A stretch of 64,000 bases of DNA from Gammaproteobacteria bacterium (GTDB taxonomy: Bacteria > Pseudomonadota > Gammaproteobacteria > Tenderiales > Tenderiaceae), in contig JACQEP010000016.1 of the NCBI GenBank assembly GCA_016200485.1, forward strand, positions 139,067 to 203,066, given 5' to 3'. The notes beneath the pieces were generated by a model. That model did no database searches. It was not told where the DNA came from and saw only the letters and a list, made by a program, of their open reading frames with translations. How positions within the stretch are numbered: position 1 is the stretch's first letter; each line of letters begins with the position of its first letter. This document shows positions 2,937 to 60,328 of the stretch, in pieces. A program made the position numbers and the translations under genes.

Positions 2937-3292
2937 AAAACCAGTCTTTCAACGCTCGCCTTGGATTTGCCATCGCCGGACTCCGTGCCGCTTGGCACAG
3001 TGAACGCAGTCTGCGCACCCAGGCCTATCTCGCCGCGATATTGCTGATGGTGATGCTGTGGCTGCAACCTGATGCACTCTGGTGGGCAGTGATCGGCATC
3101 ATGGCAACGCTGGTATTTGCTGCTGAATTGATCAACACCGCGCTGGAACAACTGGCGGATCACCTGCACCCGGAGCAACACCCAAAAATCAAAATGGTAA
3201 AAGATTGCGCAGCAGGTGCCGTTCTGATTCTAAGCATTGGGTCATTGTGGGTGGCGGCGTGGATGTTGATTGATACTGTTATTGGAAAATAA
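2933..3292 (+). CDS. dgkA: diacylglycerol kinase
   Basis: 119 aa, three TM helices, ELINTALEQLADHLHPE...KDCAAGAVL resembles the DgkA family. ATGA start/stop overlap with the upstream DedA-PAP2 gene. Confidence 0.75.
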   Translation: MKNQSFNARLGFAIAGLRAAWHSERSLRTQAYLAAILLMVMLWLQPDALWWAVIGIMATLVFAAELINTALEQLADHLHPEQHPKIKMVKDCAAGAVLILSIGSLWVAAWMLIDTVIGK

Positions 3293-3293
3293 C

Positions 3294-4400
3294 CTAATTT
3301 TCCTCTATTAAAAACGAAGCGAACAACCGGTCTTCAATCAAGTAAACACCGTTCGCCGGCTGACTCAGAACCCTGGCCCGTTTCAATCTGGAAAGTGCCG
3401 CGCGCACTTGTGCAATAGTCGCCTCGGATTTCTTTATCTTGCCAAGCAGTGCCAACGTTTCCTTACCGAATGGCGACCCACCTCTTGCCAGCAACACCAA
3501 CAATGCGCGATCAAACGGTGAGAGTCCATTGAGTAGTGCATGCCAGCCAGCCTGTTGATGCGAACTCTTGATCATTCGCTTGACCGCTGCATCAACATCG
3601 GTACTTCCCTCGGCGGACATTGATTTTACAATGTCTTTCATCAGGTCCGGCTTATAACCAATGTACGCGAACACTCGCCTGAGCTCGGAAATGACCAGAG
3701 ATTTTCCCGTGTGGATCTTGGCGAAATGCTGTGCGAGCAATTCGAGATACTCATCACCGAGCACCGGGAAGTCGATAAGCTGCGCGAACTGATACATTGG
3801 CCCGCCCGACGCAACCATCATCGCCGCCAACGTTTCCTGTGACGATCCCGTGAACACGGCATACACCTCTCTATGCCGTTTTTGCAGCACGGCCCGCAAA
3901 GCGGCTATCGCCGACTGTCCATTGGCCAGCGCCCCGAGTTGCTGAACTTCATCAAGCATGAGCAGTACAGGTCTGCCAGCCGCAGCATACAACCTCGCCA
4001 CCAGGGTATCGAACCGCAACTCGGTTTTGGCGGGCAAAGGCCCGGCGCCCGGAACTTCCCCAAGTTCAATGGCAGCCCCAAAGGCACCGATTTTCTTCAC
4101 CGGCGTTTTCGCGGCCTTGCCCAGCGCCGTCTTCGGCACCATGACCGCTTCCAATGCCTCTTCCAAGGCATGAGTGATTGCCGCAAGAGGATCATCCTGC
4201 TGCAACCATAAATCAGCATAAACGGGCACCAGCTTTGCCTTCCGCGCCACCGGGTACAGGTCGTGTAACAGAAAGTAGGTTTTCCCAACCCTTCGCGGGG
4301 CGAAGAGCGCCAGAGGACGACCCGGCTGGGCCTCCAGCAACGTCAGATAACTTTGCGCCAGCTTGGTTCGCCGTACCTTCAAATCGTCGAAAGTTTCCAC
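3294..4400 (-). CDS. AAA+ ATPase (Arch_ATPase/ATPase_2-type) with C-terminal winged-helix-like tail
   Basis: 368 aa, Walker A FAPRRVGKTYFL and Walker B VLLMLDEVQQL. Standalone gene. Confidence 0.6.
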   Translation of the reverse strand: METFDDLKVRRTKLAQSYLTLLEAQPGRPLALFAPRRVGKTYFLLHDLYPVARKAKLVPVYADLWLQQDDPLAAITHALEEALEAVMVPKTALGKAAKTPVKKIGAFGAAIELGEVPGAGPLPAKTELRFDTLVARLYAAAGRPVLLMLDEVQQLGALANGQSAIAALRAVLQKRHREVYAVFTGSSQETLAAMMVASGGPMYQFAQLIDFPVLGDEYLELLAQHFAKIHTGKSLVISELRRVFAYIGYKPDLMKDIVKSMSAEGSTDVDAAVKRMIKSSHQQAGWHALLNGLSPFDRALLVLLARGGSPFGKETLALLGKIKKSEATIAQVRAALSRLKRARVLSQPANGVYLIEDRLFASFLIEEN

Positions 4401-4487
4401 GATGCGCCCCTTTGCTGTTCATTGTCGTTTATAACAACAATTGCTGTCAATGACGACATTACGCCACAACAGCCAGCGATATATTGA

Positions 4488-4522
4488 TAAAAAAGTTCGT
4501 AATTAAGATATAAAGTTTGTAA
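4488..4522. repeat. left inverted repeat (IR-A) AAAAAGTTCGTAATTAAGATATAAAGTTTGTAATT with two tandem TTYGTAATTAA boxes
   Basis: Its reverse complement aligns with 7171-7207 at about 30 of 35 positions. Followed by TAAACACC. Confidence 0.8.
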
Positions 4523-4675
4523 TTAAACACCCAATCCAATGTTCACGTTTTGGTCGCGCTGACCTGCCTCCTCCGTATGTGCATGAAAACATAGGATGGG
4601 AAATGTGAAAGCATAGGTTGGCCAGCGTTTATTGATCCGGCCAAAAGAAGTTTTAACTTCGATCGGCACGGATAC

Positions 4676-4701
4676 CCCCTCTCCCGCGAGCGGGAGAGGG
4701 G
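4676..4701. repeat. perfect 12-bp-stem palindrome CCCTCTCCCGC-GA-GCGGGAGAGGG downstream of brnA
   Basis: Read directly from the sequence, ~40 bp past the brnA stop. No T-tract, so hairpin or REP-like rather than a canonical terminator. Confidence 0.5.
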
Positions 4702-4739
4702 CGATTTCAAACATATTCATGCCGTATCAATAGTGAACC

Positions 4740-5021
4740 TTAGCGTTCAGCCGCGCGCCTTTTGCGTCGGCTGGAACGCTTTGTTAGAGGTTGCTTGTGG
4801 GCCAACGTATATGCATCTAATAGCCGACGGATCATCTTCTGGTATTGGGTATGATGCTTTTCTGCCTCGTCCTTGAAAAAATTAACGCTTTCCTTGCTCA
4901 GGGCAATCGTAACTTTTACAGTATCTTCCTTAAATACAAGCTCCTCCGGTGCGGGTAGGAAATCCGGCACAACCCTTAAGGGGCCAATTGGCTCATCAGT
5001 GTATTTGGTTTTCGCGCTCAT
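4740..5021 (-). CDS. brnA: BrnA-family antitoxin (ribbon-helix-helix)
   Basis: Lies downstream of brnT on the same strand. The VKVTIALSKESVNFFKDEAEKHHTQYQKMIRRLL segment is RHH-like and the tail is basic. The start is placed at the internal Met (ATG at 5021); the longer ORF would start at 5075. Overlaps the brnT 3' end. Confidence 0.6.
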   Translation of the reverse strand: MSAKTKYTDEPIGPLRVVPDFLPAPEELVFKEDTVKVTIALSKESVNFFKDEAEKHHTQYQKMIRRLLDAYTLAHKQPLTKRSSRRKRRAAER

Positions 5022-5283
5022 AGATTTGTTTGCCTTTGCGCCAATAGCCAGCCCCGAAAATTCGGATAAGACCACGGCGATATGTAAAACAGACAGTCAA
5101 AATACCGTCCCCAACTTTCCCGAAACAGTAATACCGTTTTTCGCTATGGCTGTGGGATAAGTCTTCAGCAATAACACGGTCTGGATCTGCGAAAGCATAC
5201 TGAGCTTCGGCGAATGAAACACCGTGTTTAGCTTGATTGACAAGATTCTTCTCGGAATCCCATTCGAAGCCTTCCTTGCTCAT
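4996..5283 (-). CDS. brnT: BrnT-family type II toxin (DUF497)
   Basis: 95 aa, FEWDSEKNLVNQAKHGVSFAEAQYAF...RIFGAGYWRKG resembles BrnT/DUF497. Confidence 0.7.
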   Translation of the reverse strand: MSKEGFEWDSEKNLVNQAKHGVSFAEAQYAFADPDRVIAEDLSHSHSEKRYYCFGKVGDGILTVCFTYRRGLIRIFGAGYWRKGKQIYERENQIH

Positions 5284-5584
5284 GAGACAAACCTAGCAGA
5301 ATCCAAGCTATTTGTCCATATTATTATATGGCTTTTTATATGGCTTGCTCCATGCCAGCTTGGCAACCTCTAACGGCACCCATCAGCCGCGCCGCTTTTT
5401 GGCGTCGGCTGGATAGGTTTAGCCCAAGGCGACGGGTACTCAAGCCTGAACACCAGTTGACGACGATGCCGAAAACGTGCACCAGAGTCAGGCAAAATGT
5501 ATGCCAATGGCGCCGCTTCAGTTTGGGGCTAACGCCAAGCTAAGCCGACGCCCGGAGCAGCGCGGAGGGCGGTTGAGCGCAGGG

Positions 5585-6190
5585 TTAGACCTGATGTGTC
5601 GTAATCCATGCGATGACCTCACGCGCATTATCATTAGGCGGGAATACCGGATAGAAAACCTTCCGAATAAGGCCATTCATTGCAATGATTGTTAACCGCT
5701 TTATCAGGCGTGTGCCCGCATATTCAAATGTTGGCAGTTTCAGCGCTTGAGCTAAAGTAAGTTGCTCGTCATTGAGCAATGCAAAGGGGAGTTGTAGCCT
5801 TGCATGGGATTCTTGTTGGTCTTCCAAACGTTGCGCGCTCACACCAAACACCTCGACGCCAAGCTGCTTCAACTCAGCGTGAGAATCGCGAAAGGCACAT
5901 GTTTGCGGGGTGCATCCCCTGGCGCCGGGTATGTCATTCCAGCCGATGAGAGGAGGGCTATCGGGACGACCCAGCATGGGGTAGAAATAAATAACCAGTG
6001 TGCCCGTATAAGTGCTGAGATCAACGGCTTTTCCTGTGGTGCTAGTCAGTGAGACCGAAGGTAAGGTGCTCCCCAGTAAATGGTCGCATGCGCCGTCATC
6101 TACTGGAACCGGTAAATTAACGGGTAAAGTGTTTAGGTCTTTTATCATTTTCCTATCCGGGGACAATTGTTTCAGGTCTAACGCTTGCAA
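5585..6190 (-). CDS. thioredoxin-fold peroxiredoxin (AhpC/TSA/BCP-like)
   Basis: 201 aa with a CTPQTC redox motif and a thioredoxin-fold pattern (VIYFYP...GCTPQTCAF...LGVEVFGVS). The true start may be an internal Met. Confidence 0.6.
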   Translation of the reverse strand: MQALDLKQLSPDRKMIKDLNTLPVNLPVPVDDGACDHLLGSTLPSVSLTSTTGKAVDLSTYTGTLVIYFYPMLGRPDSPPLIGWNDIPGARGCTPQTCAFRDSHAELKQLGVEVFGVSAQRLEDQQESHARLQLPFALLNDEQLTLAQALKLPTFEYAGTRLIKRLTIIAMNGLIRKVFYPVFPPNDNAREVIAWITTHQV

Positions 6191-6223
6191 TCACGCGCTT
6201 GTCGCGTGCATTGCATTGCCATT

Positions 6224-6706
6224 TCATATGCAGCCTTGAACCTCGATTCTCTCTTCAAAGAGTAATTCCTTCACCCTTTTTATTTCAATAAATTCGTATG
6301 GCGATGTTTGCGATTGGGTGACGATGCAATTGCTCCCCGGCTTTTTGATTACAATCTTGGCTTTAATGTATTCACCAAAGTCCTCAATTTTCTCTACCGA
6401 TATTGAGTGGCCGCCAGTAGAGCGCCCGCCAAGGCTTAGCAATACCACTCTTCTCGACGAGAAATCCACTGTGTGCTCTGTAACTGGGTGAATATATAAG
6501 TACAAGCTCGAATTAAATGATGTCTGACTTGTAAACACCTCTATTTTTCTGTTTTCTGGCAAGCCACTTATTGTTTTGTCACCGGATGCTATCACCGTAA
6601 ACGTTACGATTGGCAGTGGTGTATCCGCATTTGACTCGGGGACACAGCTTACTAACAACGGCGCAAGCATTGTTACCAGAACAACCAGCAGTTTATTGAT
6701 TTTCAT
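6224..6706 (-). CDS. lipoprotein with PrcB_C-like domain
   Basis: Signal peptide plus lipobox (LLVSC). AT-rich. Start taken at MKINKLL (ATG 6706) with an AAGGT Shine-Dalgarno. The domain assignment is tentative. Confidence 0.5.
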   Translation of the reverse strand: MKINKLLVVLVTMLAPLLVSCVPESNADTPLPIVTFTVIASGDKTISGLPENRKIEVFTSQTSFNSSLYLYIHPVTEHTVDFSSRRVVLLSLGGRSTGGHSISVEKIEDFGEYIKAKIVIKKPGSNCIVTQSQTSPYEFIEIKRVKELLFEERIEVQGCI

Positions 6707-6804
6707 AAATTTACCTTGATAAGGCATAACATTGTGTTGAGCGGCGCGGCGCGCAGAGACAACAGGAAACAGTGTGCCGCTTCACCGCTCCCGACTCGAA
6801 CGCA

Positions 6805-7071
6805 TTATGTGCTTTTTGCTTTTTTTGGAAACCGCTCTGGATGCTCAATGATTTCTTGTGTGAGATCGACATCGATTTCCGGCCAATAAAAGCGTCCAGG
6901 TGATGGCTCTTTAACATTCATAATTACCTTTACCGGCTGATCCTTGAACCACGGGAATTCATCGTATGGCATGAATAATTCTTGGTCATGAGCCAACAAC
7001 CAGATTCCGTGAGTAGAGATATTGGTTACTTCAACTGCCGAAGTAGTGTTGCCATGCGCTGATATGCTCAT
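6805..7071 (-). CDS. DUF2442 family protein
   Basis: 88 aa, ISTHGIWLL...ELFMPYDEFPWFKD...KVIMNV...FYWPEIDVDLTQEII matches the DUF2442 pattern. Confidence 0.6.
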   Translation of the reverse strand: MSISAHGNTTSAVEVTNISTHGIWLLAHDQELFMPYDEFPWFKDQPVKVIMNVKEPSPGRFYWPEIDVDLTQEIIEHPERFPKKAKST

Positions 7072-7210
7072 GATAGTGTTCCTCGATAAGTGACTCGACT
7101 TCTTTCAACTGTTGCCGATTGTAACGGTAGGTTTTCGCAAGCTGTAGTTCCGGCTCAAGGATGAGGTCGAAATTACAAACTTTATACCTTAATTACAAAT
7201 TTTTTTATCA
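7031..7210 (-). pseudogene. 5'-truncated DUF4160-family gene fragment (partner of DUF2442)
   Basis: The open frame encodes ...LILEPELQLAKTYRYNRQQLKEVESLIEEHYHEHISAWQHYFGS*, which is like a DUF4160 C-terminus. The frame runs into IR-B with no start codon, and about 45 N-terminal residues are missing. Confidence 0.4.
7171..7207. repeat. right inverted repeat (IR-B) AATTACAAACTTTATACCTTAATTACAAATTTTTT
   Basis: Inverted copy of IR-A. Followed after 5 bp by CTAAACACC. Confidence 0.8.
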
Positions 7211-7277
7211 CTAAACACCAGCATGAGAGCGCCAAAAACGGGATTCAAAGGATAACAAGGCGAAAGAAGCTCAACCG

Positions 7278-7304
7278 TAGGGGTGATTTATGAATCGCCC
7301 CTAA
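7278..7304. repeat. REP-like palindrome copy (GTAGGGGTGATTTATGAATCGCCCCTAA, imperfect)
   Basis: Member of the GGGGCGATTCATGAATCGCCCC family, immediately 3' of the dioxygenase gene. Confidence 0.7.
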
Positions 7305-8342: not shown

Positions 8343-8948
8343 TCACACTCCCCAACGTGGAAGCAAATGATGCTCAACGTTCAAATGATCAAGCACCCGC
8401 GCTACGACAAAATCGACCAAATCTTCAATCTTTTGCGGTTGATGATAAAAGCCCGGATTCGCGGGAAGAATGGTGACACCTAGTTGCGACAGTGTAAGCA
8501 TGTTTTGTAGATGAATCGCCGACAACGGTGTTTCGCGATGTACCAGAATCAATTGCCGCCGTTCCTTGATCATGACATCGGCGGCGCGCTCCATGAGATC
8601 ACTGCTGGCGCCGCAGGCAATCGCGGACAACGTGGCGCTGGTACACGGGCACACCACCATCGCCCGTGGCGCGCCAGAACCCGAAGCGACCGGTGCCGAC
8701 CATTGATCCTTGCCGTAGACAAACAACTGATTTGGTTTTGCCTTGAAATAGGCACTCAGCTGTTGTTGTGCTTCTTTGGGGGTGCTCGACAGCTTGAGCT
8801 CTGTCTCCATGGCGATAACGACCTGTGCTGCCTGACTAATCATCAGATGCACACTCTCCCCCGCCTGCAACAAACACTCCAGCAATCGCAAACCATAGGC
8901 GGCACCCGAAGCACCGGTCATGGCCAATGCGATATCGCGACGGCTCAT
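8343..8948 (-). CDS. ubiX: flavin prenyltransferase UbiX
   Basis: 201 aa, [21 protein letters not shown]... resembles the UbiX/Pad1 family. Confidence 0.8.
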
Positions 8949-10322: not shown

Positions 10323-10838
10323 TCAACCTGCCCCTGCCGCCTTGAATAAAGAGCTAATGATACTGATTGAAACGTATAAATAGACCAAGGCGATTAAAAT
10401 TCCGATAAAAAACTTGGTCGACAACGCATGCCGCAACACATGTCCGACCACCGCCAGATTCCAGGTCAGCAAACCCATCATCAACATGGTCGACACCATC
10501 GGCATCACCTCCGGCTGTTGCACTTGCCACCACAACACGGGCGCCGCAAACACAGCAAGGATGGCGCCGCTCCCGGCCAATGCCGTCAGCGTCTGCGTAA
10601 AACGGGCACCGAGGTCGCGCACCCACAGCAACAAAAACGTCAGCCCCGACACAATCAACACATCGACTATCCCTGACGCTAGCGCCAGCGCCGGCGTCAG
10701 ACTCATCAAACCCACAACGATGCTGCATAAACCATAAATAATCAGGCTCAATGCCAGCAACACGTTCGAGGACGGCAAATCCTGCGGCGCGAGCCGAAAC
10801 AGGCAAATCTTCCAGAAGGCATTGAGAATAGCGTACAT
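10323..10838 (-). CDS. inner-membrane protein, ~5 TM helices (Yip1-like?), hypothetical
   Basis: 171 aa and very hydrophobic. No recognisable motif. Confidence 0.45.
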   Translation of the reverse strand: MYAILNAFWKICLFRLAPQDLPSSNVLLALSLIIYGLCSIVVGLMSLTPALALASGIVDVLIVSGLTFLLLWVRDLGARFTQTLTALAGSGAILAVFAAPVLWWQVQQPEVMPMVSTMLMMGLLTWNLAVVGHVLRHALSTKFFIGILIALVYLYVSISIISSLFKAAGAG

Positions 10839-12879: not shown

Positions 12880-13081
12880 AGCTCACCTCGGTACCTTTAT
12901 ACTGAACTATAATTTTAATATAGCCTCTTATCTAGTAATTAACAGGGCGAATAAAGAGTGACGCGCAGTGGCTGAAAGATTGACAGTTTTTTAACTGGCC
13001 TGCATCAAGTTCCACCCTGGTTCATCCGATAGCTTCAGAGTACCTAACCATGAGTATCACCCATTGTATTTGGAGGGAAAA

Positions 13082-15197: not shown

Positions 15198-15533
15198 GTG
15201 GCTGCCAAGAAGAAAGTCTACAAAGTGATTTTTCACAACCAGGGCAAGATTTACGAAATCTATGCCCGCAACGTCGAGCAAGGCGATTTATTGGGCTTTG
15301 TCGAGATCAGCGGCCTGATCTTTGGTGAAAAATCCAAAATGTTGGTTGACCCGGGCGAAGAAAAACTGGAAGCGGAATTCTCGGGCGTGGAATCCTGTCT
15401 GATCCCGATGCATGCTGTGGTGCGTATTGACCAGGTCACCAAGGAAGGGCACAACAAAATATTGGCTGAAGACCAAGGCGGCAACATCACCGCTTTTCCG
15501 TCACCGATCATTGCGCCGCGCCGAAACGATTAA
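15198..15533 (+). CDS. DUF1820 family protein
   Basis: GTG start with an AAGGAA Shine-Dalgarno. VAAKKKVYKVIFHNQGKIYEIYARNVEQGDLLGFVEI... Confidence 0.5.
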   Translation: MAAKKKVYKVIFHNQGKIYEIYARNVEQGDLLGFVEISGLIFGEKSKMLVDPGEEKLEAEFSGVESCLIPMHAVVRIDQVTKEGHNKILAEDQGGNITAFPSPIIAPRRND

Positions 15534-15536
15534 CTG

Positions 15537-15562
15537 CAGGGGCGATTCATGAATCGCCCCTG
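15537..15562. repeat. REP-like perfect palindrome CAGGGGCGATTCATGAATCGCCCCTG
   Basis: Sits between convergent genes. Confidence 0.8.
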
Positions 15563-17348: not shown

Positions 17349-17474
17349 CCCGATCCGGCGCCCCTCAACGCCTCATCCCTGAATCGTCGCTGGCCGACGA
17401 TTATCGCGATTCTATCGGGTTACTATACCGTTGGAGTGTTTGATCTGGCTAGCATCGTGATCTGGGATATCGCG

Positions 17475-17496
17475 GGGGCGATTCATGAATCGTCCT
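17475..17496. repeat. REP-like palindrome copy GGGGGCGATTCATGAATCGTCC (imperfect)
   Basis: Lies between the sensor kinase and the MotA-like gene. Confidence 0.65.
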
Positions 17497-17533
17497 TACC
17501 TAAACCGTGGGCGACGTTTGCGCAATGTGCCAA

Positions 17534-53547: not shown

Positions 53548-53656
53548 ATCATTAATCCAGTTATGTAGTTGCAGGGATCGATAACATACATTTTACCCGA
53601 CGATCGTAGTCTTGGCGCTACTACTTGATTTGCAGGCAGATAATGCCTGTCACCTG

Positions 53657-53684
53657 TAGGGGCGATTCATGAATCGCCCCTACG
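53657..53684. repeat. REP-like perfect 28-bp palindrome GTAGGGGCGATTCATGAATCGCCCCTAC
   Basis: Lies between the malic enzyme and MFS genes. Confidence 0.8.
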
Positions 53685-55983: not shown

Positions 55984-56408
55984 CGGCGGAAGACGCTGCG
56001 CTTTCCGCCCTACGCGCTTCGACATCCAGACGCCAAACGAACCCGGCATCTATCCCTTCCAGTGGCGCATGCAGCAAAAACAGATGGGATTATTCGGTGC
56101 AACGAGTCCGTTGTTGAAGATTGAGGTGAAGAGGGGCGGGAAGTAACTGTACGGGTGATGATGGAGTAGGGTGCAATAAGGCGGTAGCCGCGTTGCATCG
56201 GAGGGTGGTTCATGCGGCGCAAACGCGTAAGGCGTAACGGTAGGGCGGAAAAGCGTAGCGCCTTCCGCCGCATGAAGTTGCATAAATGAATCCCATCATG
56301 CCAAATGATTATTGGAACTGTCGAGCCCAAGAAAAACCTCGCACCTTCGCCTCAAATGGGCCTGAAGAGAACATACGGCGGAAGGCGCTACGCTTTTCCG
56401 CCCTACCT
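55984..56408. repeat. cluster of three copies of a ~33-bp hairpin repeat CGGCGGAAGGCGCTACGCTTTTCCGCCCTAC
   Basis: Copies at 55984-56013 (+), 56240-56272 (inverted) and 56375-56408 (+). The last two are near-identical. The cluster sits inside a 1.5-kb stretch that lacks convincing ORFs. Confidence 0.75.
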
Positions 56409-57115
56409 AAAGAGACTACATCTGCCTTACAAGCAGGGATCCGTCGCCGGTTCTGACGCTGAGCCAAATGTTTGTGTGATCGAATTACCTTGAATGATTT
56501 GAACAATCTGTGACAAACCAAAGGTAATACTGAAAAACTGGCAAAACGAGTTGGGATCGGTCGTCGGCGCACCCTACATAGTAAGCGTAGCCTGGGTTGA
56601 GCGTTTTTTGCGAAACCCGGGTTATTGATGGCTACAACTGTACACCCTGAGTTTCACTTCGTGAAGCCCAGGGTGCACAAGCCAAACATCCTGCATCTTG
56701 ATGTCCTAAGTAGGTATTTACTCAGCTTATGAGTGGTGTCGAAATCGTGATGCTGCGTGTTTGGCGCGGCGTTGGCCATTATGAAAACATGGGCATCGTT
56801 GGTGGCAGTATTTGCTAGTTGAGAGCGATGACTTGAATGTAACCCTAAGTTGTCCATTTTCATTGCCAGTGAAATATTGCTGATAGCAATTTTGGTGATC
56901 GCGTCTAATATGATGTCATGTTCCTTGGTATGTAGAAGCGAAAGGTCAGCGTTTGCATTTGTTTGTCTTGTTGATAATTGCCAAGGTAATGGGGGGTCAT
57001 GCCGTGGCATCAGCGGGCTATTAACGGGGAGTAGTCACTTTATTTGGTTTGTCCGGCATGAGTAAGAAACGAAGGGAATTTGGACGGACGGTTAGAATAA
57101 TCAAGGAGAAATAAC

Positions 57116-57823
57116 ATGTTCGGTTTTCAAGAAAATTATCGCATGTTCTTTAGATTAATCGGAGTTTTGCTGGCGCTTTCTGCCTATGCGGGGGTTGGTG
57201 AGGCGAGCCCGGTGTGGGAACTGGTGCCGGCGAAAGGCAAAGTTGTGTTCTGGTGGACTGAGGAAAGTGCTGCAATTACGCTTCCAGAAGAAAGGCAAAA
57301 TAATACTAATGAGGCGAAGTGGGAAAAATTTGAAAATCCTCCAGCCAACGCAACGGATTGGCGACAGTGGACGGAAGATAAAGACGGCAAGCGCTCCGAC
57401 GTGATCGGAGGGAATATCAAGAAAACCAATCCATGGAATTGGGAGCCACTTGACACTCTGCCTGCTGTGGACTGGCGGATTCCAGACCTCTTTGCGGTAG
57501 AACCGAACTTGCAGACGCTCTATACGGCAGTAAATCTTGATTTGTATTTGGCTAACAATCCATGGCCATTATTGTCGATTGGCGACCTATTATCGATCGC
57601 TGACGGCAAAATATCCGGTCTGCAAGGTATTTATTTGAGTTCGACTGAATTTACGTTTGATCCAAACTCTGAAAACGGGTTTGTGGGAACCGCGTTTAAT
57701 GGCTTGGCGCGAGCTGGTGCTTTTCACAGCAGCGTGCCGGAACCGACGGCAATCTCGTTGCTTGGATTAGGGCTGGCATGCTTGCCTGTGTTCAAGAGAG
57801 TTCGCAGCGCCAAGACGGGCTGA
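57116..57823 (+). CDS. PEP-CTERM sorting-domain secreted protein
   Basis: 235 aa with a signal peptide. The C-terminus VPEPTAISLLGLGLACLPVFKRVRSAKTG is a PEP motif, TM and basic tail. Shine-Dalgarno AAGGAG. Confidence 0.7.
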   Translation: MFGFQENYRMFFRLIGVLLALSAYAGVGEASPVWELVPAKGKVVFWWTEESAAITLPEERQNNTNEAKWEKFENPPANATDWRQWTEDKDGKRSDVIGGNIKKTNPWNWEPLDTLPAVDWRIPDLFAVEPNLQTLYTAVNLDLYLANNPWPLLSIGDLLSIADGKISGLQGIYLSSTEFTFDPNSENGFVGTAFNGLARAGAFHSSVPEPTAISLLGLGLACLPVFKRVRSAKTG

Positions 57824-57989
57824 CATACTGCTCTGACAATTAACCCTAATTTGAAGAACACAAGTTTTTCAACGCGCCTAAGACGTAATGGCAGAGCGCC
57901 AATAGGCGAAGCCGTATTGCGCCGGATGGAAGCGCAACGCGTTTGTGAAAACTTAAACTACCGTAGCTAAGACGCTACTGGCCCAAAAG

Positions 57990-58091
57990 TTATTTTGATT
58001 CATTCTTGTTTTTCTTCGCCGCTTTTTTCTCTTTTGGAGTCATGGCGGGCTTCTTTTTACTCTCTTTATTACTTTTTTGTTCCTTGCCCAT
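57990..58091 (-). CDS. small Lys-rich basic protein, 33 aa (MGKEQKSNKESKKKPAMTPKEKKAAKKNKNESK)
   Basis: Found manually; too short for the supplied ORF track. An AGGAG Shine-Dalgarno lies 7 nt upstream of the ATG. The composition is strongly biased and not like random sequence. Confidence 0.35.
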   Translation of the reverse strand: MGKEQKSNKESKKKPAMTPKEKKAAKKNKNESK

Positions 58092-58448
58092 GGCGCTCAC
58101 TCCTAATAATGAATGGGAAATCTTCGGGTTAGTTATTACAACTCAGTTTAACGGAACCGACAATGATTTTCTGACAACACTGCACAAGATACTGAGATAG
58201 AAAGGGAAGTGATCCCTCCGTCGGTAACTACGGAGTATTTCGCCGTCTGGCATGAGATGAGCCAGCGCTGGCGAAAATAGCAGACGCCAATCCACAATAC
58301 CATGAATATAGACACTGGGTTCCACTCTTTTCGGCAACCCAGACAAGTAGGGTGCGCATAGCGCACCCTACATCTTGGACTTTATGACATATGCTTTCCG
58401 GTGGTGAGTTAAAAATAAATGGGGGCGCAACACCACAACGGGATCAGT

Positions 58449-58481
58449 TCCAACATTCCAACATTAATCTCCCATTGCACT
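58449..58481. repeat. 33-bp direct repeat, copy 1 (TCCAACATTCCAACATTAATCTCCCATTGCACT)
   Basis: 30 of 33 positions match 60036-60068. Lies just past the 3' end of the corC-like gene. Confidence 0.75.
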
Positions 58482-58553
58482 AACGCGTAAGACGTAATGG
58501 CAGGGCTCAAAAGCTCAATCCATTTTGATCGCTCGGCAATCACTCAGTTGCGT

Positions 58554-59870
58554 TTAATCTTCACTATCACTCGTGGCCGTCACATCAGTCGCGTGGGCGT
58601 GGCGGGCGAGCACCTTGTCGATGCGCTTGCCATCGAGGTCGACCACCTCCAGCCGCCAATCCTCCCAGGTGACGATGTCGCCGGTGCGCGGCAGGTGGCC
58701 GAGCAGCCACATCACCATGCCGCTGAGGGTGTGATAGCGGCCGCGCTCCTCTTCGGGGACGCTCTTCAGCGCCAGCCGATCCTTCAGTTCGGGGATCGGG
58801 ATCAGTCCGTCGAGCAGCCAGGAGCCATCCTCGCGCTGTACGGCCCAAGCGTCTTCGAGATGGTGCGATTTGAATTCGCCGGTGACTGCTTCCAGCACAT
58901 CGTGGAGCGTGACCATGCCCTGCACTTCGCCGTACTCGTCGATGACAAAGACCAGATGGGTGCTGGAGGCGCGGAACTGTTCGAGCAGTTCCATGCCGGT
59001 GAGTGACTCGGGCACATAGACGACCGACTGCAACTGGTAAGTGAGATCGGCCCTGGCCCCCTTGAGGGTCTGGTTGAAAAGCTGCTTGGCGGTGATGATA
59101 CCGACGATGTCACCCAGGCCGCCGCGGCAGACAGGGAAACGGGAGTGATCCGATTCCGCCATGCGGGCAAGGTTCTCCTCCAGCGGACGGTTGAGGTCGA
59201 GCCAGACGATGTCGGCACGCGGCACCATCAGGGTGCCGAGCTGGCGGTCATCGAGGCGGAACACATTACGCACCATCTCATGCTCACTCTTATCGATGAT
59301 GCCCGACTCCGACCCCTCTTCCAGCATGGCGTGGATTTCCTCCTCGGTCACCCCCTGCGCCCCCAGGTCGCGGGTGCCGAGCAGCCGCAGTAGCAGAGCG
59401 GTCGAGCGCATCAGCAGCCACACAAACGGGCGCGAAGCAACGGCCAGGGCATTCATGGGGCGCGCCACCAAGCAGGCGATGCGTTCGGGATCCATCTGGC
59501 CGATGCGCTTGGGCACCAGCTCGCCGACAACAATCGAGATATAGGTGATGACCACCACTACCAGCACTGTGGCGCCGATCTCGCTGGGCCGCTGTTCGAA
59601 GCCAAGCTCCTGAAGCCAGAGCGCAAACGGCTCCGCCAGGGCGGCCTCGCCGACGATGCCGTTGAGGATGCCGATGGAGGTGATGCCGATCTGGATGGTG
59701 GAGAGGAAGCGGGTCGGCTCCTCGCCCAGTTTGATGGCCATCGCGGCGGAGCAGTCACCCGCCTCCGCCAGACGGGCCAAGCGCAGGCGGCGGGCGGCGA
59801 TGAGCGCGATCTCGGACATGGCAAATGCGCCATTCAACAGGATCAGGGCAGCGAGGATCAGAATTTCCAT
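58554..59870 (-). CDS. HlyC/CorC(TlyC)-family transporter (DUF21, CBS pair and CorC_HlyC domains)
   Basis: Start chosen at MEILILAALILLNGAFAMSE (ATG 59870), which is the DUF21 N-terminus. CBS and C-terminal transporter-associated domains follow. GC is higher than the surrounding DNA. Confidence 0.75.
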   Translation of the reverse strand: MEILILAALILLNGAFAMSEIALIAARRLRLARLAEAGDCSAAMAIKLGEEPTRFLSTIQIGITSIGILNGIVGEAALAEPFALWLQELGFEQRPSEIGATVLVVVVITYISIVVGELVPKRIGQMDPERIACLVARPMNALAVASRPFVWLLMRSTALLLRLLGTRDLGAQGVTEEEIHAMLEEGSESGIIDKSEHEMVRNVFRLDDRQLGTLMVPRADIVWLDLNRPLEENLARMAESDHSRFPVCRGGLGDIVGIITAKQLFNQTLKGARADLTYQLQSVVYVPESLTGMELLEQFRASSTHLVFVIDEYGEVQGMVTLHDVLEAVTGEFKSHHLEDAWAVQREDGSWLLDGLIPIPELKDRLALKSVPEEERGRYHTLSGMVMWLLGHLPRTGDIVTWEDWRLEVVDLDGKRIDKVLARHAHATDVTATSDSED

Positions 59871-60035
59871 GGGGCAGTTTCCGGAATAGACAATGAAAAG
59901 AAGCGGCTCACGAACGGTAGTCCGAGGCACGGGGCTATATATTACACGAGGCGCTACAGCGACTGTTTTAAGTGCCATTCGGGTCGGAGCCCTTAATCCT
60001 CTCAATAAACCATCAGCACGCGGCCCGGGGCACTT

Positions 60036-60068
60036 CTAACATTCCAACATTGATCTCTCATTGCACCA
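60036..60068. repeat. 33-bp direct repeat, copy 2 (TCTAACATTCCAACATTGATCTCTCATTGCACC)
   Basis: Upstream of the corC-like gene. Confidence 0.75.
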
Positions 60069-60328
60069 GCGTGAAAGAACATTCCTAAACCTGTTCGTCA
60101 CGTGCCTATTGCTTGGCCTCTTGACTTACCTTCATCTATCGAGCGACATATATATTTAACTGACTATAATTATTCTTGCATTGGCGGATATCAGACTGGC
60201 TCAATAAAACCGTGCTAACCGCTTAATTCGAGCGGTTATCTGAATTTAATCGCAACACGCCAGTCAAATCAGAGTGTCATTTTCTTGCGGGTATCAATAA
60301 TCATCAGAAACCCGCATAGGAGGTAGGT

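Follow-up and report, generated by a model that had tools for sequence, protein, structure and literature searches.

Arms and contents of the repeat-bounded block

Within the 64-kb stretch of gammaproteobacterial DNA analyzed here (referred to as the window, with positions counted from its first nucleotide), a 2,732-bp block at positions 4482–7213 lies between the two arms of an inverted repeat, with an ATPase gene on one side and the terminator of a persulfide dioxygenase (PDO) gene on the other. Every gene of the block is on the minus strand, and its GC content is 0.47, as compared with about 0.54–0.57 in the flanks. Since attC sites were observed between the genes, the interior of the block is an integron cassette array; it comprises five cassettes together with five attC or attC-like sites within 2.1 kb, and cassettes and sites share a single orientation (minus). 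An earlier reading of the same DNA from its letters alone (the sequence-only reading) had described a free-standing cassette of stress genes, a description that has to give way to that of a cassette-array fragment. The cargo it listed, namely brnTA, a peroxiredoxin, a PrcB-like lipoprotein and a DUF2442/DUF4160 pair, was recovered in our Pfam searches, except that the DUF4160 gene is truncated at the right arm. Pfam analysis of the open reading frames (ORFs) of the block also bore out its statement that no recombinase is encoded there.

The left arm, IR-A (4482–4524, 43 nt), was delineated by repeat finding and a box search and reads TA-T-TGATAAAAAAGTTCGTAATTAAGATATAAAGTTTGTAATT. The right arm, IR-B (7171–7213, 43 nt), is an inverted copy of it. 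The two are 91% complementary (39/43) and separated by a gap of 2646 nt, so that the inverted repeat noted earlier is real and larger than the approximately 35 bp then given. A whole-window repeat scan found no inverted repeat in the 64 kb that is longer or better. Each arm contains two AAAGTTYGTAATT boxes, arranged as a pair of tandem 20-bp units whose conserved core measures 13 nt; the presence of two direct boxes per arm had been recognized before, and their spacing is corrected here from about 21 bp to 20 bp. The boxes occupy positions 4492–4506 and 4512–4526 in IR-A and, on the minus strand, 7189–7203 and 7169–7183 in IR-B, where the innermost box is degenerate at its end (AAAGTTTGTAATTTC). 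Inspection and repeat finding showed that they repeat directly every 20 bp and have no dyad symmetry. When the 15-nt box AAAGTTYGTAATTAA was searched for throughout the window with up to two mismatches, four matches were obtained against 0.13 expected, and none of 100 shuffles gave four; all four fall within the two arms and none elsewhere. The core of the arms spans from TG at 4485–4486 to CA at 7209–7210, and beyond it on each side there is one mismatched base followed by TA. No promoter-like sites were predicted in the arms.

The IR-A junction is spanned by a Logan contig (L003) that corresponds to window positions 3036–4620 with 100% identity, and the IR-B junction by two others (L001, 6076–8954, 100%; L068, 5996–7829, 99.4%). 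Because these contigs are independent assemblies from two sequencing runs and cross both IR-A and IR-B, the junctions are not chimeras created during assembly of the metagenome-assembled genome (MAG). A Logan contig break at position 4467 was considered as a sign of population heterogeneity and dismissed, since the contigs of these samples break every ~1.5–3 kb anyway.

Following the array from IR-B, the first gene is a 3′ fragment of a DUF4160 gene (7022–7170), which matches positions 27–65 of the 65 positions of the Pfam profile; its frame runs to the inner edge of IR-B without a start codon, and ~35 N-terminal codons are gone. It is followed by an 88-aa DUF2442 gene (6805–7071), with homologs of up to 89% identity in Sedimenticola and in related genomes. 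In Sedimenticola hydrogenitrophicus the DUF4160-DUF2442 pair is intact; DNA homology to it starts at 7159, and the 11 nt between this point and the inner edge of IR-B (7160–7170) are filler or diverged sequence. The first cassette of the array is cut inside the DUF4160 gene, against IR-B. Since the DUF4160 gene is truncated there, whatever preceded the array would have been deleted at this point, and in an integron this would be attI and intI. A cassette at 6729 to 6182 carries a gene for a lipoprotein with a PrcB_C domain (6224–6727), and the one after it (6181 to 5533) carries a peroxiredoxin gene (AhpC/TSA, Redoxin; 5585–6148). A gene-less cassette of 159 bp (5532 to 5374) precedes the last cassette (5373 to 4738), in which the toxin-antitoxin genes brnT (4996–5283; Pfam E = 5.6e-23) and brnA (4740–5075; a weak Pfam match, E = 0.0017, that falls short of the Pfam cut-off) reside together. 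Between the last attC crossover (4738|4737) and IR-A there are 213 bp of non-cassette backbone (4525–4737, minus strand), containing a 65-aa ORF (4523–4720) without a family match in Pfam, a perfect 12-bp GC hairpin (4676–4701) and a half palindrome, AGGGGCGATTTCAAAC (4696–4712), that resembles repetitive extragenic palindromic (REP) elements. At this end the array finishes in a normal G|TT junction to the backbone, as at the distal end of an array.

The five sites lie on the minus strand. attC5 (4732–4789), in the brnTA cassette, has the R'' box CTCTAAC and the R' box G|TTCACT; attC4 (5368–5423), in the gene-less cassette, is homologous to it, and both fold into a bottom-strand hairpin with single T and G bulges. 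attC3 (5527–5590), in the peroxiredoxin cassette, belongs to another attC subfamily and has canonical boxes (R'' GTCTAAC, R' G|TTAGCC). The remaining two are attC-like: attC2 (6172–6224; R' G|TTAGAC, crossover 6182|6181), after the PrcB gene, was identified from a model hit and its fold, and attC1 (6724–6811; R' G|TTATGC, crossover 6730|6729, non-canonical R'' CATAAT), after the DUF2442 gene, by inspection and folding only. In array order the R' boxes are GTTATGC, GTTAGAC, GTTAGCC, GTTAGAG and then the divergent GTTCACT of the crossover at 4738|4737. attC4 shares 33 identical nt with a canonical attC (GCCTAAC...GTTGAAC) of the Thiolapillus brandeum plasmid pTBH10. When attC4, attC5, the pTBH10 site and a site from the metagenome contig L012 were aligned, the consensus stem displayed compensatory changes in 5 of 15 pairs. 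The covariance model R1, built from four sites of one attC subfamily, scored its training site attC5 at 76 bits. The top non-training hit of R1 in the whole window was attC2 (16.5 bits, E about 0.1); attC1 and attC3 went undetected, this single-subfamily model being too narrow for them. The start of the peroxiredoxin cassette, G|TTAGACCTGA, is complementary to the start of its own attC, TCAGGTCTAAC (14 nt, 93%), and that of the brnTA cassette, G|TTAGAGGTTGC, to its own R'', GCAACCTCTAAC (12 nt, 100%). Such complementarity between start and R'' across a cassette is the classic footprint of a circularizable cassette. The attC of pTBH10 (2693–2775 of L069) is itself located ~70 nt upstream of an annotated IS91-family transposase gene, on a 10.5-kb plasmid packed with insertion sequence (IS) elements.

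More than the two same-strand attC sites less than 4 kb apart that define a cluster of attC sites without an integron integrase (CALIN) are present, and attC4 and attC5 display R''/R' boxes, an imperfect L''/L' stem and bottom-strand extrahelical bases. The array is therefore a CALIN by the definition of Cury et al. (PMC4889954). No Phage_integrase hit was obtained with Pfam among the ORFs of the surrounding island and the 21 larger ORFs of the window, and tblastn of the window with IntI1 and VchIntIA (approximate queries) gave no match to an integrase remnant better than E = 0.17. The ORFs of the block and those scanned in the rest of the window included neither a recombinase nor a transposase gene. 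Junctions mediated by IntI at the ends of the block were considered and rejected, since there is no G|TT crossover at either end of the block or of the 4-kb island. At a distant PDO locus (44% identity) in an uncultured Pseudomonales-type MAG (L012), attC-like sites (8827–8900, 10521–10590 and 12944–12996) and small ORFs were also observed a few kb downstream of PDO.

When the whole block was compared with PLSDB and phages by blastn, matches were limited to the peroxiredoxin stretch and one attC. Neither the gathering thresholds nor E-value thresholds gave a hit in Rfam, the search for tRNA genes was negative, and PADLOC and NCBIfam added nothing further for the island proteins. Within the 5′ part of the peroxiredoxin gene (6026–6075), the second-sample contig L068 differs from the window by 11 substitutions in 50 nt, the other 1.8 kb being identical; this cluster suggests microdiversity or a tract of local recombination.

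The island between the PDO and DAGK genes

Syntenic contigs were reached via PDO homologs with 81–90% identity. In two of them (L070 and L073), the hairpin of the PDO terminator is immediately adjacent to the end of the converging diacylglycerol kinase (DAGK) gene, with no ATPase, cassettes or repeat. Since PDO abuts DAGK in close relatives, window positions 3276–7277 (4,002 bp) constitute a strain-specific island. Between PDO and DAGK, a further contig (L071) encodes an ATPase of the STAND type that is unrelated (AAA_16/nSTAND1, with a weak mad8 hit), and the intergenic region of this contig showed no significant similarity to the arms. The junction of the converging PDO and DAGK genes is a hotspot for accessory genes. 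In GTDB, the closest PDO relative is 64% identical and shows no synteny. A comparison with loci lacking the insert had been proposed in the sequence-only reading; the empty PDO-DAGK sites of L070 and L073 now provide it, and these relatives lack the repeats and the genes alike. The same reading held that the arms would be a local pair of regulatory palindromes if the repeat occurred nowhere else and syntenic genomes carried the same genes without it. Half of this was observed: the repeat was found nowhere else in the collections searched, but the syntenic genomes are without the genes too.

The ATPase gene, which had been called standalone, is itself part of the island. The gene (ATPase_2 family, 3294–4400) and its conserved promoter/operator leader (4401 to about 4472) occupy positions 3276–4481 on the minus strand. 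On the far side of the block, the outer part of the island (64 bp, 7214–7277, minus strand) lies between IR-B and the REP/terminator of the host and is absent from relatives. Together, 3276–4481 and 7214–7277 make up an ATPase module of ~1.27 kb, in the leader of which the repeat-bounded block sits. Without the block the island measures 1270 bp, as compared with 1279 bp for the ATPase module of contig L067. In the latter, a 64% identical ATPase homolog lies between 48-bp direct repeats (90% identical; 3138–3185 and 4417–4464), which are 1279 bp apart, and is followed by ccdAB. The ATPase gene looks like a mobile single-gene module itself. Its family is accessory and widespread: Beta- and Gammaproteobacteria contain many homologs of ~60% identity, which frequently have toxin-antitoxin genes as neighbors; no relatives were found in IMG/VR with single-sequence or alignment queries. 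In four homologs (L066, L067, L076 and L077) the alignable part of the leader reaches to within ~10 nt of IR-A's outer edge, and AT-rich boxes or a palindrome are absent from all four leaders. Positions 4401–4472 are operator-like, with TTGACA, a GCAATTG palindrome and TTGTCG/CGACAA repeats, and are common to homologs of Cupriavidus, Polaromonas and two metagenome contigs.

On the right, the island is bounded by a REP-like palindrome of the host (7271–7303) that serves as the PDO gene terminator. It belongs to a family, GTAGGGGCGATTCATGAATCGCCCCTA, with four copies in the window (7271–7303, 15530–15562, 17466–17498 and 53650–53682), and a cognate hairpin follows PDO in L070, L073 and L072, the PDO of the last being 90% identical. 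The AGGGGCGATTTCAAAC of the backbone is a half-copy of this palindrome. Elsewhere in the window we observed a 36-nt inverted repeat (97%; 56239–56274 and 56372–56407, with a spacer of 97 nt), together with a small family of repeats (three copies of 28–38 nt) and a direct repeat of 48 nt whose copies are 1586 bp apart (56217–56407, 57875–57902, 58445–58514 and 60031–60078). The repeats around 56217–60078 may represent another element of the REP type or of the MITE type (a miniature transposable element with inverted repeats).

Origin of the block

The block is a discrete insertion of foreign DNA. The outer edge of IR-A lies within ~10 nt of the start of the conserved ATPase leader, as fits an insertion bounded by the repeats, and the terminal inverted repeats coincide with the limits of the inserted DNA. 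The explanation we favor, tentatively and at somewhat less than an even chance, is that 4482–7213 is a defective integron-carrying transposon, movable only with a transposase supplied in trans. In the simplest history, the ~1.27-kb ATPase module would have entered the PDO-DAGK hotspot first and the 2,732-bp block would then have inserted into the ATPase leader. The 20-bp units would bind a DDE transposase, and the layout of the arms, with two tandem units each, is as would be expected for cooperative binding of such an enzyme and resembles that of transposon ends with arrayed binding sites for their transposase. A deletion beside IR-B would have taken intI, attI, the transposition genes and the 5′ half of the first cassette. 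Any movement of the block would then need a transposase in trans, and the cassettes would still be excisable by an integron integrase in trans. The models considered here differ in the junctions that they predict, the candidates being an empty site ...CATGCTGGTGTT(TA)TCGCTGGCTG..., a solo-arm site ...GGTGTTTAATTACAAAC..., inverted junctions (ATPase leader, IR and DUF4160 fragment) and a circle joining the outer ends of IR-B and IR-A or reading ...GGATTGGGTGTTTAGTGATAAA....

A number of findings weigh against a defective transposon. A search for further copies of the end sequence, suggested in the sequence-only reading, yielded none in the window, GTDB species genomes, JGI metagenomes, IMG/VR or PLSDB. 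In collection scans that required exact pattern matches, a 29-nt end pattern gave 0 hits in 185,579 GTDB species genomes and two in the JGI metagenomes, both of which are AT-rich and due to chance (L004, within a tandem repeat; L005, intergenic), and a looser 26-nt pattern gave 0 hits in IMG/VR. The IR-A arm with its flanks (4470–4545) gave only chance AT-rich hits in blastn against PLSDB, and the 64-kb window, which is the part of the source genome searched, holds no second copy of the arm. Within 3 nt of the arm ends no target duplication of at least 3 bp exists, TA alone being present on each side; one offset 5-mer, CCAGC, lies 4 nt away from each arm end. A partner transposase is not known, nor was any similarity to terminal repeats present in PLSDB plasmids detected. 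Moreover, the deletion of intI and the transposition genes is inferred rather than observed, and the model does not account for an asymmetric pair of TAAACACC copies described below. Of the mobile or att-bounded insert proposed earlier, what stands is a discrete foreign block with its limits at the repeats and without a recombinase; its mobility is an inference, given that there is neither a second copy nor a target duplication of at least 3 bp.

The single copy anywhere searched and the missing target duplication, together with the cargo being cut inside a gene at IR-B and the position of the block in a recombination hotspot beside a REP element, would also be consistent with a different history. 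A palindrome that pre-existed in the ATPase leader, or an inverted duplication made there by repair, could have captured a random array fragment by illegitimate recombination; the repeat would then not take part in mobility, and could be a fragile site or one to which a protein binds. We regard this as unlikely, although it has to be taken seriously, because the four homologous ATPase leaders contain neither boxes nor a palindrome and the island minus the whole block has the length of the L067 module (1270 vs. 1279 bp). Furthermore, no promoter-like site was predicted in the arms, and the array ends at IR-A in a normal G|TT junction and not in a random break.

It is rather doubtful, in our estimation, that the 43-bp arms are the ends of an undescribed family of small elements that is mobilized in trans by a transposase or host recombinase, in the spirit of integron mobilization units (IMUs) or pdif modules, and that carries cassette-array fragments between the chromosomes of marine sulfur-oxidizing Gammaproteobacteria into accessory-gene hotspots. 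If true, this would constitute a route of CALIN formation independent of the integron integrase.

The sequence-only reading had noted that the same sequence follows both repeats. On the + strand TAAACACC does follow both arms, but it is not a symmetric end feature: copy 1 (4524–4531) is inside the block, beside the GTAATT end of IR-A, and copy 2 (7212–7219) is outside it, with its TA overlapping the outermost two bases of IR-B. Being inside at one arm and outside at the other, the pair falls outside the symmetry of the arms. Around the two copies, repeat finding showed that a 16-nt stretch agrees at 13 of 16 positions, and the chance of TAAACACC adjoining both arms is roughly 0.003–0.01. This agreement, and the fact that both copies abut the arms on the same strand, would fit insertion by a site-specific recombinase with TAAACACC as the crossover core, in which case the insert would be about 4532–7219 (2,688 bp), IR-A would stem from the target and IR-B from the incoming circle, and a circular junction TTGG-GTGTTTA-GTGATAAA would be predicted. 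The tandem boxes would be accessory arm-type sites, for which direct-repeat boxes about two helical turns apart are typical. We nevertheless hold such an event to be improbable: no recombinase was found in the window, inspection revealed no inverted core-type half-sites flanking the putative core, and the 8-mer is fairly common on this strand (six occurrences in the window). In addition, the same 43-bp module would be required in opposite orientations in target and donor, whereas the ATPase leaders are without it. Replicative intramolecular inversion was rejected as well, because it predicts reverse-complement target copies and the TAAACACC copies are direct.

A 43-bp inverted repeat around 2.6 kb fits the geometry of the Mu G segment and similar systems, and a recombinase that acts in trans is known from some bacteria. 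That the arms are the crossover sites of an invertase encoded elsewhere, so that the 2.65-kb segment flips, seems quite improbable, as no invertase gene is adjacent or present in the window, inversion would bring in no obvious promoter or alternative gene end, all four junction-crossing contigs from two samples have one orientation, and the arms are tandem direct repeats and not dyad-symmetric crossover sites. Lastly, although the window comes from a MAG, a chance match or assembly artefact is scarcely credible, given that 39/43 is far past chance, that the box counts exceed expectation and all shuffles, and that Logan assemblies of two runs independently contain both junctions.

Comparison with known integron-bearing and mobile elements

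For the origin and spread of CALINs, Cury et al. list several routes and consider loss of intI or rearrangement as the origin (PMC4889954), and Loot et al. added integrase-mediated insertion at attG sites. The present locus is an environmental example of a cassette-array fragment between transposon-like ends and, if the transposon model is true, the theme of integron DNA on defective transposons known from class 1 integrons, Tn402 and IMUs reaches beyond clinical resistance integrons. With a single copy and no partner enzyme, the locus is at present an anecdote and not a mechanism, and its interest hinges on further copies or a partner enzyme showing that cassette fragments are transported by such ends. 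The block is most likely a decayed transposon unable to move itself and, having been seen only once, a modest curiosity and no new kind of element.

As in other CALINs, the locus has a set of same-strand attC sites, small promoter-poor cassettes that include a toxin-antitoxin pair, and no intI within at least 10 kb; its attC sites vary among themselves, in the manner of mobile integrons. Unlike them, the array is truncated in its first cassette and bracketed by a 43-bp inverted repeat, which is outside the CALIN definition, and the portions of the integron literature examined contain no mention of a CALIN bracketed by an inverted repeat.

Mobile insertion cassettes (MICs) consist of IS-type terminal repeats around passenger genes without a transposase and are recognized by ends shared with an autonomous IS and by target duplications. 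The locus resembles them in its order of terminal repeat, passenger genes and terminal repeat without a transposase; in contrast, no autonomous IS with the same ends was found in the window or the collections searched, and there is no target duplication of at least 3 bp. In the pdif modules of Acinetobacter plasmids, cargo that is often brnTA lies between inversely oriented XerC/D sites, each dif-type site having an 11-6-11 structure with inverted half-sites. A small cargo module with a toxin-antitoxin pair between inverted sites and no recombinase in cis is common to both, but a pdif/Xer module was rejected because the boxes at the locus are direct, with a 20-bp period and no dyad, as opposed to 28-bp XerC/XerD sites with a 6-bp spacer. 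Hin/Gin-type sites, the doublets of REP elements associated with tyrosine transposases (REP/RAYT) and promoter elements were likewise rejected on the basis of box layout.

With Tn402/Tn5053-type and Tn7-type transposons, the locus shares only the arrayed-box layout. Membership in these groups is contradicted by the absence of tni/tns genes among the ORFs scanned and of a 5-bp duplication, and the Tn7-like ends TGT...ACA differ from the TA(T/G)TGATAAA ends of the locus. Overall, the genes, the end sequence and the target duplication all speak against membership in any named transposon family. In the way it works, the locus is most probably a defective unit of the Tn402, IMU or MIC-like type, unable to move itself. 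According to PMC3575428, class 1 integrons are for the most part defective transposons of the Tn402 type, with IRi and IRt at their ends, that move only with tni genes in trans, and a defective integron between 288-bp IMU copies showed no target duplication, yet transposed with a supplied transposase. Like these defective Tn402-type and IMU/MITE-flanked integrons, the locus has integron DNA between inverted repeats, no transposase and deleted platform parts, and it shares the lack of a target duplication with the IMU-flanked one. The known elements are mobilizable only in trans, as the present block, found in a single copy, would be. The locus further differs in having neither intI nor attI, in its bare 43-bp ends in place of 288- or 439-bp MITE copies, and in the lack of end similarity in PLSDB, a blastn negative limited by the fact that the presence of Tn402, Tn21 and Tn7 ends in that database is unconfirmed. 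No family was recognized for its end sequence, and the locus is best filed as integron cassette DNA in defective repeat-bounded mobile DNA, which is a known kind.

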